Origin: Escherichia coli | GTDB taxonomy: Bacteria; Pseudomonadota; Gammaproteobacteria; Enterobacterales; Enterobacteriaceae | NCBI RefSeq assembly: GCF_003334255.1 | Contig: NZ_QOWU01000002.1 | DNA: 64,000 nucleotides | Direction: 5' to 3' (one strand) | Shown here: positions 3,005-25,568 of the stretch, one piece after another | Numbering within the stretch: the first letter of the stretch is position 1 | How the letters are laid out: each line of letters starts with the position of its first letter | Position numbers and translations under genes: made by a program | The notes under the pieces: generated by a model | The model's database searches: none | Seen by the model: only the letters and a program-made list of their open reading frames with translations | What the model was told of the DNA's origin: nothing

Positions 3005-4819
3005 TTAGTTCATCCATACCGTAGCCGAAATGGCAGGCAAAGCCAGAATCCCGTCAGTCAGTTGCCCATGCCCTTCTTTGCATTGCCATTGCACGGCATT
3101 GAGAAACGGTGACGCGGGTAGCACCACTTCACAGGCCTCGCCACGGTTGATTGCCACCAGTACACGTTGCTGATTCAGCACGCGGACAAATACCACCACG
3201 TTATCTTCCGCATACAGCACCTGACAGCCGCCATGACGTAGCGCCTGACTTTTCTTACGCAGCGCAATCATTCGCTGGTACAGCGCGAATAACGCCGTAT
3301 CCTGCTTTTCCACCTGCCAGGGGAACGGTTTACGGCAAAACGGATCGTTTTTGCCATCCAGTCCTACTTCATCACCGTAATAAATGCACGGTACACCAGG
3401 CCAGGTGAACAGCCAGACCACCGCCAGCGGCAGGCGCGCAATATCCCGACCGAGCAGCGTTTTAAATCGCGCAGTATCGTGGCTGTCGAGCTGATTAAAC
3501 ATACGTAATTGTTGTTGATGAGAAAGCCCTGCGCGGTAATTATCCATCCAGGCCATACAGGTTTGGGCATCAATTTGCTGCGGATCGTAAGAGATATCGG
3601 TATTGGCAAGAAATCCCCACAACGGGAATGTGAAGCCACGATAGTTCATGGCGGCATCTTCCACATCGGCCTGTAACCATTGCCGTGCATCGCCAAAATG
3701 TTCGCCGACAATATACGCTTCCGGCTGGGTTTCTTTCGCCGCTTCGGTGATCCCGGCAACGTGCTGCATATTATTGCGCGCCCCACCCGCCTCCCCCAGC
3801 ATATGCACCACATCCAGCCGCCAGCCGTCCATATTCCACGGCGCTTTCAGCCAGTGGCGGACAATACTGTCTTCCCCGCGATAAATTTCATTCACCAGAC
3901 TTTCCGACTGATAATCCAGCTTCGGCAAGCTGGCATAGCCAAGCCAGTCGAGCGCCGTGCCATCATCACTAAACGAGTACCAGTCGCGCCAGGGCGATTC
4001 GGGGTTGTGACAAGCACCACCCGTGCCACGATTATGCCTGTCAAACCAGGCATGGGAATCGCCACTGTGGTTAAACACGCCGTCCAGCACCAGCCGCATT
4101 CCCAGCTGCTGCGTATTGTGTCGCAAACGCAGCAACGCCCCATCACCGCCAAACTGCGGATCGACATGGCGATAATCCTCGGTATCGTATTTATGTACGC
4201 TGGGAGCTTTAAACACCGGATTGAGATACAGCGCTGTCACGCCAAGCTTTTTCAGATACGGCAGTTTTTCGCTTATCCCGTCCAGATCGCCGCCATAGAA
4301 CGTTGATCCGCCCGCCTGCGCCGTGACCGGTTCATCCCAGTCACGCAAGATGATCTCTTGTCCGGCTGCATGATGGTAATAGACATGATCCTGTTCAGCT
4401 TCACGAGGAAGACTACGCGCAAAACGATCAGGGAAGATCTGATAAAAAATCTGATCCGCAGCCCATTGTGGGCCGATATCCGGTACATCGACGGCAAACT
4501 GCTCCAGTCGTGCCGGCGGCATTCGGCTGAAGCCCTGCGGTGTAAACCAACGCTGGCGATCGTGCCACAGCAGTTTGAAACTGTAACGCCGCCGGGGTTG
4601 TCCGCTGGAGAGATCAATCGCCGCACGCCATGCGGTGACGCCAGGCTGCGGCTGACTGCGCTGCTTATGCATCGGTACTGACATTTCTTCGTTATCGTGT
4701 TCTGTACGCAGCATAATGCGCTGCGGTGGGTCTTCGCCCGTCAGCCACAGTGTAATGAGCAGTTGATCTTTGCTTTGTTTAACAAATGGGGGCACCGGCA
4801 GGTGCCATGCATTTAACAT
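3005..4819 (-). CDS. malZ: Maltodextrin glucosidase
   Basis: ORF of 605 aa beginning [18 protein letters not shown]; glycoside hydrolase family 13 features; start taken at the second ATG (604 aa), the first ATG at 4822 is also possible. Confidence 0.93.
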
Positions 4820-10195: not shown

Positions 10196-10248
10196 GATTT
10201 GCCCTGTTGTAATAAATAGGTTGCGATCATTAATGCGACGTCATTATG

Positions 10249-10278
10249 CGTCAGATTTATGACAGATTTATGAAAAGC
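10249..10278 (-). promoter_or_regulatory. Pho box of the phoB promoter (PhoB~P binding site)
   Basis: Minus strand reads CTTTTCATAAATCTGTCATAAATCTGAC: two direct 7-bp CTGTCAT-like repeats on 11-bp spacing, about 60-90 bp upstream of the phoB ATG. Confidence 0.7.
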
Positions 10279-22416: not shown

Positions 22417-23532
22417 TCAGGCCGCCACTTCGGTGCGGTTACGTCCGGCTTTCTTTGCTTTGTAAAGCGCCAAATCTGCCGATTTCAACCACTCACGATA
22501 GTGACTCATTTGTGGGTTCAGCGGCGCAACCCCCACACTAATCCGTAAAGTTACCTGTGGCGTATTCGGCAAACGTAATGTATTTAGCCCTTCATGCACC
22601 CGTAACATGGCGGTAATGGCGCTCTCAGCTGGCGTACCGGACATGATTACTGCAAACTCATCGCCGCCAAACCGACCAATCACATCGCTACCGCGCAGGG
22701 TAATTTGTAACTGTCGGGTAAGCGCCACAATCGCTTCATCGCCCACATCATGGCCCCAGGTATCGTTGATGCTCTTGAAATGGTCGATATCGATAATCAG
22801 TAACGTTGCATCGCGATTATGCCGCCGACAGTTATCAAATTCATTGCGTAACATAGTTTCCCAATGACGTCGGTTATACACGCCCGTCATGCCGTCGCGG
22901 GTACTCATGACCTGCAACCTGCGTTTATGTTCCGCCAGTTTGGTTGCCGTCTGGTAGCTGACCCAGCCAAACAGCAGAGGATAAATGACAATAATGGGAA
23001 GGGAGAGCCACCATTCCAGCGGCGCACTATTGAACGACACGGTAATGCCCGTCAGCTCGAGGGTGACAAGGCAGGAAACCACCATCAACACCAGACCCGC
23101 GACAAACAGACGGGGGCCGCCTGCCCCCATCAAATTCAGACACATAATCATCAACATCGCGGTGGAAGGCAGCACGTTTACGCCCATTACGCCTACCCAC
23201 ATTCCCGCTAATACTGCATCGGTTTTTAAGTTGTAAATTTCCCGGCTAAGCGGATCGACGGCCCTGCTCGCTATCTGCCAGGCTAAATGCGGCCAGACGA
23301 ACGCCCAGCCGACCAACACCAGCCACCACCAGCCCGGCGGCGGGTGTGAAACCAGCGTTGAAGCAATCGGTAAGAACATGCCAGCCAGGCCAACCGCACG
23401 GGGTAGTCTGACGCGACGGGCGAAGCGCAGCCCGGACCGCTGATGTTCGTTTTGAGGAGTTAAAGGAGGTTCCTCCCCGTGCGCCGCCGCTTTTTTGAAA
23501 AAGTTTTCATCATTCATTATTTTTGGGAACAT
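22417..23532 (-). CDS. dgcC: Diguanylate cyclase DgcC (AdrA/YaiC); MASE2 membrane domain plus GGDEF
   Basis: 371-aa ORF with N-terminal TM helices and C-terminal GGDEF motif (RFGGDEFAVI). Confidence 0.92.
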   Translation of the reverse strand: MFPKIMNDENFFKKAAAHGEEPPLTPQNEHQRSGLRFARRVRLPRAVGLAGMFLPIASTLVSHPPPGWWWLVLVGWAFVWPHLAWQIASRAVDPLSREIYNLKTDAVLAGMWVGVMGVNVLPSTAMLMIMCLNLMGAGGPRLFVAGLVLMVVSCLVTLELTGITVSFNSAPLEWWLSLPIIVIYPLLFGWVSYQTATKLAEHKRRLQVMSTRDGMTGVYNRRHWETMLRNEFDNCRRHNRDATLLIIDIDHFKSINDTWGHDVGDEAIVALTRQLQITLRGSDVIGRFGGDEFAVIMSGTPAESAITAMLRVHEGLNTLRLPNTPQVTLRISVGVAPLNPQMSHYREWLKSADLALYKAKKAGRNRTEVAA

Positions 23533-23633
23533 TCAGAAACAATTTTCCCAAATTATAGAGACGGAGCTAAAGGCAGAAGTATGATATTTCGGGTGAGCCA
23601 TTTTCGTAGCTCACCCGTTAGCACTATCAGGTA

Positions 23634-23954
23634 TCAGGCGGCTTTCTTGAGGCAGGCACTCATAAACTTATTACGATCATCACCTTTCAGAGATTGTTGT
23701 GTTGCTTGATTATTGCATTCGCGCATCTTTTGCTGCTGTGGCGTCAAACTTTTTTCGCCAGGCGCAGACTTGCTGTTCTTCAGGCAATCACTCATGTAGG
23801 TCTTACGAGCATCCCCTTTCAACGCCTGCGCCGTCGCCTGCTGATTACAGGAGGTCATACGCTGTTGTTGTGGGGTTAAAGTTCTCTCGGCAGCGCCGAC
23901 GGTGGTTAAAAAAACCAGACCGAAAAGCAAGGTAACCAGTAATGTTATTTTCAT
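23634..23954 (-). CDS. psiF: Phosphate starvation-inducible secreted protein PsiF
   Basis: 106 aa from ATG 23954, MKITLLVTLLFGLVFLTTVGAAE (signal peptide); contains an internal ~35-aa tandem duplication. Confidence 0.88.
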   Translation of the reverse strand: MKITLLVTLLFGLVFLTTVGAAERTLTPQQQRMTSCNQQATAQALKGDARKTYMSDCLKNSKSAPGEKSLTPQQQKMRECNNQATQQSLKGDDRNKFMSACLKKAA

Positions 23955-24028
23955 AGCACCATCCCTCTTCATGTTTTAACCATGAGCGTATGCGCCCGTG
24001 ATCTGCCATTAAGTCTGGTTGCTAACAG

Positions 24029-24065
24029 CAAAAAAACCACCCGGCAGCGAAAATTCACTGCCGGG
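24029..24065 (-). terminator. Rho-independent terminator/attenuator between phoA and psiF
   Basis: Minus strand CCCGGCAG-N10-CTGCCGGG hairpin followed by TGGTTTTTTT, directly after the phoA stop. Confidence 0.6.
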
Positions 24066-24072
24066 CGCGGTT

Positions 24073-25488
24073 TTATTTCAGCCCCAGAGCGGCTTTCATG
24101 GTGTAGAAGAGATCGGTCTGGTCGGTCAGTCCAACAACATTGGCGGCATGCGGGCCATACGCCGCAATACGCAACTGACTGCCGGTATGTTCTTGTGAAT
24201 CCTCTTCGGAGTTCCCGTAACTCATCACCATCACTGCGCCATCTTTGGTATTTAGCGCCTGGGTGAGGCCCGGAGCTTTGGTATCCGGCGCAACAATCTG
24301 GCTGGCGTGGGCGTGATCAGCGGTGACTATGACCAGCGTGTTACCCTCCTTTTTAGCGAATTCCAGCGCCCGTTGTACGGCTTCATCGAGATCGACCGTC
24401 TCGCCAATTTGCCCACAAGGATTCGCAGCATGATCCTGTTTATCGATTGACGCACCTTCAACTTGCAGGAAAAAGCCTTTCTCATTTTTACTCAACAATT
24501 CAATGGCTTTGTCGGTCATCTGCGCCAGGGTTGGTACACTGTCATTACGTTGCGGATTTGGCGTACAGGTGACTGCGGGCTTATCGATATTGCCATGGTA
24601 CGTTGCTTTCGGTCCTAGCCAGCGCACTGGCATATTGCCGTCAGCAAACAGGCCAAGCAGGGGTTTTTGCTGATTCGCTTCCGTCACCGAATTCAGTGAG
24701 GCAGCATCGCTCACCAACTGATAACCACGCGCCTGTGCCTGTTCACGCAGCGTTTTTCCCTGCCATTCACCAGCGGTTGCCGTTTCAGCAAAGGTTTTTG
24801 CGCCGCCGCCAAGCGTAACGTCGGCACGAGCGTTAAGCAGCTGTTCGGTAATCGATCCTTTTCCGCCTTTTTCCAGAGCGTTACCCGGACATTTTTCACT
24901 GGTCGCGCTCGGACCGTAGCATTTGCGCGAGGTCACATGTGCCACCAGCGCAGCGGGCGTGGCATCCTGCAACTCTGCGGTAGAAACGTTACCGGTCGCC
25001 AGACCTGCGGCTTTTGCCATTTCCAGAATCGTTGGGTGATCTTTTTCGTGAATATCGACGCCCAGCGCGCCGTTATAGGTTTTGACACCGGTTGACCAGG
25101 CGGTTGCTGATGCAGCCGAGTCGGTGACGTAGTCCGGTTTGCCGGTTTTTTTATTCAGCGCATAGTGAGTGTATTGCCCGGTAAGCGGTAAGGCATCTAT
25201 ACCTTTAAAAAAGCCGCCCGCACCTTCGGCATAATTACGTGCGGCAGTAATTTCCGAGTCCCCCATCCCATCGCCAATCAGCAAAATAATATTTTTTGCA
25301 GGTTTATCGCTAAGAGAATCACGCAGAGCGGCAGTCTGATCACCCGTTAAACGGCGAGCACCGCCGGGTGCAGTAATATCGCCCTGAGCAGCCCGGTTTT
25401 CCAGAACAGGCATTTCTGGTGTCCGGGCTTTTGTCACAGGGGTAAACAGTAACGGTAAGAGTGCCAGTGCAATAGTGCTTTGTTTCAC
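24073..25488 (-). CDS. phoA: Alkaline phosphatase
   Basis: GTG start at 25488 with GGAGAAAATAAA upstream gives 471 aa, [36 protein letters not shown]; the track ORF is an upstream extension. Confidence 0.96.
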
Positions 25489-25550: not shown

Positions 25551-25568
25551 GTGACAACTTTATGACAG
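25551..25568 (-). promoter_or_regulatory. phoA Pho box and promoter
   Basis: Minus strand reads CTGTCATAAAGTTGTCAC followed by GGCCGAGACTTATAGTCGCTTTG (-10 TATAGT); canonical Pho box sequence. Confidence 0.8.

Follow-up and report, generated by a model that had tools for sequence, protein, structure and literature searches.

Organization of the phoA-psiF locus

The locus is the classical phoA-psiF operon of Escherichia coli. Between positions 23400 and 24300, the window, which is the whole 64,000-nucleotide stretch of E. coli DNA that was analyzed, has the same sequence as E. coli K-12 MG1655 (100% identity). The RefSeq annotation of this interval gives phoA, psiF and adrA, and each of the 5,426 complete E. 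coli genomes has a counterpart of it at 95% identity or more. According to the RefSeq annotation of the identical MG1655 stretch, the genes follow each other on the minus strand in the order iraP-phoA-psiF-adrA, with proC convergent on the plus strand. The coding sequences that concern this study are:

24073..25488, minus strand: phoA, alkaline phosphatase of 471 aa that starts with GTG and stops with TAA at 24073-24075 (RefSeq, from the identical stretch of MG1655; translation checked)
23634..23954, minus strand: psiF, 106 aa plus stop (RefSeq annotation; NCBIfam NF008560 equivalog)
22417..23532, minus strand: adrA (= yaiC) (RefSeq annotation)

The open reading frame of psiF reaches an upstream ATG at 23972, from which a protein of 112 aa would be made. 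This codon is not conserved in other genera, whereas AAGGATGGTGCnATG is conserved at 23954, and the start of psiF was therefore placed at 23954.

For comparison, psiF loci were collected from the genomes of 80 Enterobacteriaceae species, using a single PsiF protein as the query, which yielded loci of this family only. By tblastn, a phoA match was found upstream of psiF in 63 of the 80 loci (near full-length in 62, partial in one), iraP-psiF without phoA in 16, and neither arrangement in one.

The psiF gene, the phoA-psiF operon, its control by PhoB and the PsiF repeat family are already known from databases and papers. What the present analysis adds is a covariation-supported terminator that appears to be leaky, a tight spacing between the phoA stop codon and the terminator stem, a conserved -10-like element in register with the T-run, a one-module variant of PsiF and a predicted fold for the module.

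A conserved hairpin and T-run after phoA

The spacer between phoA and psiF carries two adjoining elements:

24038..24067, minus strand: stem-loop of the probable phoA-distal intrinsic terminator, with its core stem at 24039-24066 and the loop AAUU (fold and covariation)
24030..24036, minus strand: T7 tract of the terminator, which also lies at about -26 to -32 of the predicted psiF-proximal promoter

Read on the minus strand from 24067 to 24038, the stem-loop is CGCCCGGCAGTG-AATT-TTCGCTGCCGGGTG, with 13 pairs (9 of them G-C) and a loop of 4 nt, and it is followed by GTTTTTTTG. The stem starts 5 nt past the phoA TAA, and an A-tract at 24069-24074, upstream of the stem, is able to pair with the start of the U-tract. 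A GC-rich stem-loop with T7 directly after it, 5 nt downstream of a stop codon, has the anatomy of an intrinsic terminator. The folding energy of the whole phoA-psiF spacer was -51.4 kcal/mol, compared with -37.2 +/- 3.5 for shuffled sequences (z = -4.1), and none of 200 shuffles folded as well. The only match from an Rfam search was to ClpQY_promoter (E 0.23), which was taken as chance because its 18 bits lie below the gathering score of 42.

A hairpin with a T-run at dG <= -15 kcal/mol (-15 to -30) was recovered from 54 of the 63 phoA-containing species loci, and some Citrobacter species have a weak hairpin only. In an alignment of 56 Enterobacteriaceae sequences the 12-pair stem was 84% paired, while registers slid along the alignment reached at most 53.5%, and 68 double-sided compensatory cells were counted in the stem against 23.6 in shuffles (0 of 500 as good). 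This degree of pairing and compensation indicates that the hairpin is real and under selection. The U-tract is kept in nearly every species of the alignment. The distance to the phoA stop codon is also narrowly distributed: the spacing from stop to stem core was 6-8 nt in 47 of 51 species, and the hairpin starts 5-8 nt past the stop in nearly all species. The strong hairpin and T-run that the first-pass annotation had noticed between phoA and psiF are thus borne out by the stem and T7 themselves, by the folding energy and by the compensatory changes across Enterobacteriaceae.

Read-through from the phoA promoter

The only candidate for direct control by PhoB in this part of the window lies in front of phoA:

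25551..25568, minus strand: Pho box of the phoA promoter, CTGTCATAAAGTTGTCAC (pattern search), matching the PhoB ChIP-seq site TGTCATAAAGTTGTCACG (PMC10294691 Table 1)

The Pho-box pattern search of the window returned four matches where 0.13 were expected; the one at 25551-25568 is the sole match near phoA-psiF, and no Pho box was found between phoA and psiF. PhoB ChIP-seq placed a site upstream of phoA only (PMC10294691). The transcript levels of the operon were taken from published low-phosphate RNA-seq that compares the wild type with a phoB deletion (Fitzgerald et al., 2023; PMC10294691 Table S1), whose DESeq2 counts are not length-normalized according to its methods and were divided by gene length here. 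In the wild type, the densities were 219 counts per nt for phoA, 101.6 for psiF and 0.41 for yaiC; in the phoB deletion they were 1.09, 2.35 and 0.058, respectively (data from PMC10294691). The dependence on PhoB is thus 200-fold for phoA and 43-fold for psiF (log2 fold change of psiF between wild type and phoB deletion, 5.4).

Since psiF depends on PhoB 43-fold and the Pho box and ChIP site are found only upstream of phoA, at least 98% of psiF RNA under phosphate limitation comes from transcripts of the phoA promoter that pass the hairpin. As psiF has no Pho box of its own, its control by PhoB is indirect, via read-through. The ratio of psiF to phoA density in the wild type under phosphate limitation was about 0.46 in steady-state RNA, a step that fits a leaky terminator and that differential decay of the two segments could also give.

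These results suggest the first part of a plausible model. The phoA gene would end in a conserved intrinsic terminator made of a GC-rich hairpin of 12-13 bp and a U7 tract. That this terminator leaks, so that under phosphate limitation nearly all psiF mRNA originates at the PhoB-activated phoA promoter, appears to be largely shown by the data above, and read-through would leave psiF with about half the RNA density of phoA. The cause of the leak may be the ribosome that terminates on phoA, which would cover the 5' arm of the stem, and read-through would then be favored when transcription and translation are coupled. A precedent is terminator tR2: within a few bp of a preceding stop codon it was repressed almost completely, and full efficiency required a distance of more than about 30 bp, because the terminating ribosome blocks the folding of its hairpin (Li et al., 2016, PMC4824070). 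The spacing conserved after phoA suggests that ribosome occlusion of this kind may also apply to the phoA terminator.

The hairpin might instead be a 3' stabilizer or processing barrier within a single phoA-psiF transcription unit, and the twofold step in RNA density would then result from faster decay of psiF or from endonucleolytic processing. The available RNA-seq, being steady-state, is compatible with this, and the short distance between the hairpin and the stop codon may prevent most of the termination. We nevertheless regard this reading as unlikely, because the element has the canonical anatomy of a GC-rich stem with U7, is conserved with covariation, and keeps its U-tract in nearly every species, although a mere stabilizing hairpin needs none.

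A leaky terminator thus remains the preferred reading of the step after phoA. A second structure follows psiF itself:

23590..23617, minus strand: 11-bp hairpin downstream of psiF, without a U-tract (fold of an 86-nt stretch)

The 86-nt stretch folds at -23.8 kcal/mol (z = -3.1), and the hairpin marks the end of the abundant RNA of the operon, where the density falls from 101.6 per nt in psiF to 0.41 per nt in yaiC.

A putative second promoter in front of psiF

Downstream of the T7 tract, the spacer contains one further conserved element, from which a leader can be predicted:

24010..24018, minus strand: CCAGACTTA, a putative -10 region of sigma-S/sigma-70 type, with C at -13, the hexamer CAGACT at 24012-24017 and then TA (conservation)
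23955..24005, minus strand: predicted psiF 5'UTR from the proximal promoter (Salmonella TSS register)

The only part of the spacer after the T-run that does not vary widely among the 80 species is CCAGACTTA, which also occurs as CCATCCTTA, CCAAACTTA and similar variants. The motif CCAnn[C/A/T]TTA was present in 77 of the 80 species and exact in 55, and in 69 of these 77 the -10-like hexamer lies 12-13 nt from the end of the T-run. A motif of the same type was also found in the 16 species without phoA, in which the upstream sequence is unrelated. The predicted 5'UTR that follows varies, with a small hairpin specific to Escherichia in the fold and lineage-specific inserts in the alignment.

A transcription start site (TSS) of psiF has been mapped in Salmonella SL1344 at position 437138, 64 nt before the ATG (SalCom; PMC7913699 Table 2). 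The phoA gene is absent from SL1344, and on the identical Salmonella locus of our set this TSS places CAGACT at -12 to -7 with C at -13. A C at -13 together with such a placement is a -10 arrangement of sigma-S type. The E. coli element has the same features: the second and sixth letters of its hexamer are A and T, and a C stands at -13 (C-CAGACT-TA). By the Salmonella register the E. coli psiF TSS is predicted near 24004-24006 (about 24005).

Two sets of expression data bear on this promoter. In the phoB deletion, the RNA density of psiF was 2.15 times that of phoA (from PMC10294691), and therefore some psiF RNA does not come from phoA. In stationary-phase EDL933, a mean expression ratio of 73 between wild type and rpoS mutant has been reported for psiF, in a paper whose text does not mention phoA.

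The -35 region is less telling. The candidates GTGGTT and TGGTTT match TTGACA at no more than two of six positions at 16-18 nt, and a generic sigma-70 consensus scan returned no minus-strand promoter between phoA and psiF. Promoters of sigma-S often have no good -35. Our literature search found no mapping of 5' ends, TSS or 3' ends for E. coli psiF.

Another explanation is that CCAGACTTA in E. coli is not a promoter element and has been conserved as an RNA-level site (RNase E, sRNA) or as a protein-binding site. It would account for the poor -35 and the negative consensus scan; moreover, the TSS evidence is from Salmonella rather than E. coli, and psiF RNA in the phoB deletion amounts to no more than about 2% of what is seen on induction. 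Against it, the same hexamer is followed in Salmonella, at a distance of exactly 7 nt, by the mapped primary TSS, its second and sixth letters remain A and T with C at -13, species without phoA keep the element with no upstream gene to read through, and psiF is RpoS-dependent. On balance, a purely non-promoter function of the element seems improbable to us.

We therefore favor a second promoter for psiF, 12-13 nt past the U-tract, with a conserved -10 of sigma-S type (C-CAGACT-TA), which is largely shown in Salmonella and which we infer for E. coli. This promoter would provide psiF with PhoB-independent, RpoS-dependent transcription and would be the only apparent driver of psiF in species without phoA. 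The first-pass annotation had proposed that psiF depends on read-through from the phoA promoter or on a promoter of its own, and both routes found support, the former in the 43-fold PhoB dependence and the latter in the psiF/phoA ratio of the phoB deletion, the RpoS dependence, the conserved -10 and the Salmonella TSS.

The psiF leader and CpxQ

The end of the leader contains a third conserved element:

23952..23970, minus strand: segment from the Shine-Dalgarno (SD) sequence to the AUG, GAAGAGGGAUGGUGCUAUG, with complementarity to the seed of the sRNA CpxQ (RNAduplex)

The sequence flanking the SD in the psiF leader is GGAUGGUG. The duplex between the single-stranded part of CpxQ and psiF 23970-23952 was calculated with RNAduplex at -28.7 kcal/mol, while shuffled leaders gave -15.8 +/- 3.4, with 3 of 2000 as good. 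The single-stranded 5' part of CpxQ was used for this calculation; full-length CpxQ gives an artefactual -40.6 kcal/mol, in which its own terminator stem pairs. The CpxQ sequence was confirmed directly 3' of cpxP. A TRIC-seq preprint of 2025 has reported contacts of CpxQ near the psiF SD, and it also reported that PsiF-3xFLAG was up in a cpxQ deletion and down on CpxQ overexpression. The published repression of PsiF by this Cpx-dependent sRNA, which would act by pairing with the conserved SD/AUG segment, is consistent with our calculation. The conservation of AAGGATGGTGC, which exceeds that of a plain SD, is probably due to pairing with CpxQ.

PsiF is built from a repeated two-cysteine module

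The protein itself is divided as follows:

23889..23954, minus strand: putative signal peptide, residues 1 to about 22, MKITLLVTLLFGLVFLTTVGAA then E (read from sequence)
23778..23879, minus strand: PsiF module 1, L26-K59, with C36 and C57 (Pfam, self-alignment, AlphaFold2 helices 28-42 and 47-62)
23646..23747, minus strand: PsiF module 2, L70-K103, with C80 and C101 (Pfam, self-alignment, AlphaFold2 helices 72-86 and 91-104)

Read directly from the sequence, the N-terminus of PsiF looks like a signal peptide: Lys2 is followed by a hydrophobic core (residues 3-17), and the residues at -3 and -1 are small (VGAA/E). Hydrophobic N-termini are common to PsiF homologues. In a gapless self-alignment of L26-K59 with L70-K103, 24 of 37 positions were identical (E 8e-18), each module being 34 aa long. 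Pfam PF07769, the "psiF repeat" (PsiF_repeat), matched twice, at residues 27-59 (7e-18) and 71-103 (1.6e-15), and NCBIfam NF008560 (phosphate starvation-inducible protein PsiF) matched residues 1-106 with 234.5 bits against a cut-off of 165.

Each module contains exactly two cysteines, C36/C57 and C80/C101, and all four are invariant among 57 homologues. In the alignment of these 57 two-module homologues (39-78% identity), the invariant residues are C36, R50, C57, C80, C101 and L102, and Q29, Q30, M33, N37, A40, G47, M54 and L58, with their equivalents in module 2, are nearly invariant.

The description of PsiF as tandem two-cysteine copies therefore holds in the identity of the two repeats and their two PF07769 matches; what does not hold is that they are strictly consecutive, as a linker of 10 aa separates them and the period is 44 aa. 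The repeat motif as first written was right except for one surplus position, the spacing being R-x3-MS and not R-x4-MS.

Module number in the PsiF family

A full HMMER scan of 1.84 billion representative sequences gave 1,120 representative proteins (clusters at 50% identity) at E <= 1e-3, and PsiF is thus a widespread as well as a named family. For counting modules, the two E. coli repeats were turned into an HMM, which was run on 147 of the 150 best listed matches. Among these 147 best representatives, two modules were found in 108 proteins, three in 31, four in one, five in one and a single module in six. The search for the single module in other proteins that had been proposed earlier thus shows a module number of 1 to 5 across the PsiF family. 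In 298 modules pre-selected for exactly two cysteines, the spacing was C-x20-C in 255 and C-x18-C in 40.

The six single-module sequences among the 147 are mostly fragments or frameshifts. The 62-aa protein P0243 is a genuine single-module PsiF: it consists of a signal peptide and one hybrid module, was formed by an exact in-frame loss of 132 nt, which equals one repeat period, and occurs in iraP-psiF-adrA loci of Salmonella type on 16 contigs. In proteins with three modules, two of the three are often almost identical (e.g., P0129), and the copy number is therefore still changing. Proteins with three, four or five modules and long Ala/Pro-rich linkers are common. The genomic context of four distant PsiF homologues revealed no recurrent neighbor and no functional partner; one of these four loci was again iraP-psiF.

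Predicted structure of the module

AlphaFold2, run with the 57-sequence alignment, predicted helices at residues 28-42, 47-62, 72-86 and 91-104. The mean pLDDT of the two-module model was 81, with 91-97 in the blocks within the modules and about 59 in the linker, and the pTM was 0.41. A module modeled alone from 84 module sequences was again a helix-loop-helix, with a mean pLDDT of 91.8 and a pTM of 0.65. In these models the two helix-loop-helix units are each predicted with confidence, while the way they are arranged relative to each other is undefined. The structure prediction called for by the first-pass annotation thus came out in favor of independent modules, each repeat forming its own helix-loop-helix at pLDDT >90. 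The same annotation had suggested a duplicated, disulfide-stabilized periplasmic module of unknown function, a description that agrees with PF07769, with the signal-peptide-like N-terminus and with the AlphaFold2 models, the disulfide being a prediction.

It is conceivable that the two repeats are not independent and form a single four-helix bundle in which the duplication is structurally obligatory, as four amphipathic helices could in principle pack in this way and exactly two copies are present in 108 of the 147 homologues. The models speak against such a bundle, with a pTM of 0.41 and low confidence in the linker while the modules exceed 90, and with the lone module confidently modeled; so do the common three-, four- and five-module proteins with long Ala/Pro-rich linkers and the one-module variant that persists in the Salmonella lineage. 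We consider an obligatory bundle very unlikely.

Independent modules are therefore retained in our model. A sequence search of the PDB with PsiF and with the module profile found no relative. Foldseek searches of the PDB with the two-module and one-module models gave nothing significant (E >1), only generic helical hairpins, and VBP-8, Luffin P1 and a vicilin leader peptide were among the weak matches.

Intramodule disulfides C36-C57 and C80-C101 are the most likely state of the cysteines, a view that is based on the invariance of the pairs, on the predicted location of one cysteine in each helix and on the presumed export to the oxidizing periplasm. Against this, the two cysteines of a module do not stand quite symmetrically on either side of the loop but are shifted by about 2-4 residues. 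Our literature search found no experiment or paper on disulfides or ligands of PsiF.

The conserved cysteines and methionines (M-x2-C in each helix) could alternatively be metal ligands, for example of Cu(I) or Zn, in which case PsiF would be a periplasmic metal buffer or chaperone. There is no or almost no variation at M33, C36, M54 and C57 and at the corresponding positions of module 2, PhoA is an enzyme that uses Zn and Mg, and a screen for H2O2 resistance yielded overexpression clones of psiF and phoA. Conversely, Met, Phe, Leu and Ala are what the core of a small helical hairpin needs, a conserved pattern of His, Asp or Glu ligands was not seen, psiF is retained where phoA has been lost, and DsbA normally oxidizes the paired cysteines of exported E. 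coli proteins. A role in metal binding is accordingly quite unlikely in our judgment.

With disulfide-bonded hairpins as the preferred reading, the protein part of the model can be stated. PsiF would be exported to the periplasm, and each module of about 34 aa would fold alone into a helix-loop-helix whose core consists of the conserved Met, Phe, Leu and Ala residues and one cysteine per helix. The modules would be beads on a flexible linker, and the number of beads would change freely in evolution. Gln-Gln, Asn and Arg/Lys would be the conserved surface residues of the module, and PsiF is made under starvation. Our best guess, which is speculative and weakly founded, is that every bead acts as a small unit that binds an anionic ligand in the periplasm. 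A more far-reaching idea, which we put forward only tentatively and think is probably wrong as a whole, is that the PsiF module represents an uncharacterized class of stand-alone periplasmic domain, a one-disulfide helix-loop-helix of about 34 aa whose conserved Gln-Gln/Asn/Arg-Lys surface would recognize an anion, for instance phosphate, polyphosphate or some phosphorylated component of the envelope, with a bead number of 1-5 tuning avidity and with Pho, sigma-S and Cpx inputs reaching it via one terminator-promoter-leader cassette of about 120 nt.

Comparison with known systems

Considering all the above results, the best explanation of the whole is a composite control junction, made up of a leaky terminator, a second promoter and CpxQ, in front of a gene for a PsiF protein of independent helical modules; we give this reading a probability of about 0.65. 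The current understanding of the locus is not overturned, since the operon, the Pfam repeat and the control by PhoB are textbook or database knowledge. The phoA-psiF junction may be of wider interest as a natural example in which one short spacer combines three controls over two operon genes: a ribosome-proximal leaky terminator, an internal stress promoter and an sRNA site would together set the ratio of expression and the conditions under which it occurs. For the protein, the confident prediction of independent one-disulfide helical hairpins could be a concrete starting point for the biochemistry of PsiF.

The locus is identical to the phoA-psiF operon of the Pho regulon of E. coli, every phoA-psiF gene of which is co-induced in a PhoB-dependent manner (PMC10294691). 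The papers on phoA-psiF that were examined treat it as a simple operon and do not deal with an internal leaky terminator, a conserved internal promoter of sigma-S-like type or the tight spacing from stop to hairpin. In a literature search on PsiF, studies of its terminator, of its disulfides or of any biochemical activity did not turn up.

With regard to Pfam PF07769 and NCBIfam NF008560, PsiF is that family itself, with no difference. The plant alpha-hairpinins or vicilin-buried peptides (CX3C...CX3C) and the CHCH domains (twin CX9C) resemble the predicted module in being short antiparallel helix-loop-helix structures with cysteines on both helices. The PsiF module differs from them in having one cysteine per helix (C-x20-C or C-x18-C) and not two, and PsiF is bacterial, periplasmic and tandem, and has no sequence relationship to either group. 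Membership of PsiF in the alpha-hairpinins or CHCH domains was rejected on the grounds of its one cysteine per helix and the Foldseek E >1, and the weak likeness to plant hairpin peptides is, for the former reason, a resemblance only.

The closest parallels to the junction are the tR2 reporter and the attenuating terminators found within operons, in which a hairpin and U-tract also lie between co-regulated genes, a few nt past a stop codon, and produce a step-down rather than a stop. The phoA-psiF terminator is unlike those systems in that its U-tract stands in a fixed register with what we propose to be a downstream promoter.

Gene order around psiF

A more distant PsiF (47% identity) was found at 4001-4309 of two psiF loci fetched from other genomes (L089/L090), where it again lies directly 3' of iraP without phoA, its neighbour being an Asp/Arg hydroxylase-like gene. 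Therefore, iraP-psiF pairing has been observed in more lineages than phoA-psiF pairing.

In Enterobacter cloacae complex loci L006 (3207-3500), L063, L067, L068 and L073, phoA was removed by an internal deletion. The scar retains both the Pho box (GTGTCACAGAATTGTCAT) and the promoter region, together with the first and last phoA codons (the latter ...GGGCTGAAATAA), and is followed on its 3' side by a degenerate terminator and then psiF, which suggests that the former phoA promoter may now drive psiF directly. Pho boxes upstream of psiF with no more than 3 mismatches were also retained in L029, L063 and L083, and none survived at this threshold in Salmonella, L033-L035, L039, L040 or L058.

Leader and start codon of psiF

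Two features lie upstream of the annotated psiF start codon, the first identified by folding and cross-species comparison and the second by ORF reading:
23975-24003, minus strand: lineage-specific segment from the -10-like element to the SD, with equivalents in L002, L004 and L015-L021
23955-23972, minus strand: upstream in-frame ATG at 23972, giving a 112-aa ORF

The segment is about 30 nt long in most genera. Escherichia has an additional hairpin of about 26 nt, several Citrobacter carry a long inserted hairpin, and in Salmonella there is a palindrome containing TGGGATATTTCCCA, which has been reported as an RcsB box. PsiF versions of 112, 116 and 124 aa are also present in public collections (P0002, P0003 and P0033); these look like start-codon mis-calls, because the upstream ATG is not conserved.

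Module number in PsiF

A 62-aa PsiF, consisting of a signal peptide and a single hybrid module, was observed in Salmonella-type iraP-psiF-adrA loci (L096-L099, gene 2501-2689), in which one 132-nt repeat period has been lost exactly and in frame; this one-module form occurs on 16 contigs from independent assemblies. Additional material is present in some family proteins. P0152 (291 aa) carries three PsiF modules and, after them, an Ala/Pro-rich region of about 120 aa and a C-terminal Cys-containing segment (...YHFKNNANYGKTKQGAYMCERDAISAGSHAAKN), and in P0121 (262 aa) five modules are connected by charged linkers.

The psiF-adrA gap and other Pho boxes

Folding of the psiF-adrA gap and a Pho-box search of the window gave three further features:
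23590-23617, minus strand: 11-bp hairpin without a U-tract, between psiF and adrA
57520-57537, plus strand: Pho-box match with 3 mismatches, without ChIP support
10248-10276, minus strand: two overlapping Pho-box matches, 2 mismatches each

The 86-nt stretch holding the hairpin folds at -23.8 kcal/mol (z = -3.1), and across the hairpin published counts fall about 250-fold, from 101.6/nt in psiF to 0.41/nt in adrA/yaiC. Despite this drop, adrA, encoding a diguanylate cyclase, remains 7-fold PhoB-dependent in the published counts, suggesting faint read-through that ties c-di-GMP synthesis to the Pho response. The match at 57520-57537 is probably due to chance. Two criteria, distance from phoA and sequence (the PhoB ChIP site TTTCATAAATCTGTCATA, PMC10294691), identify the pair at 10248-10276 as the phoB promoter boxes.
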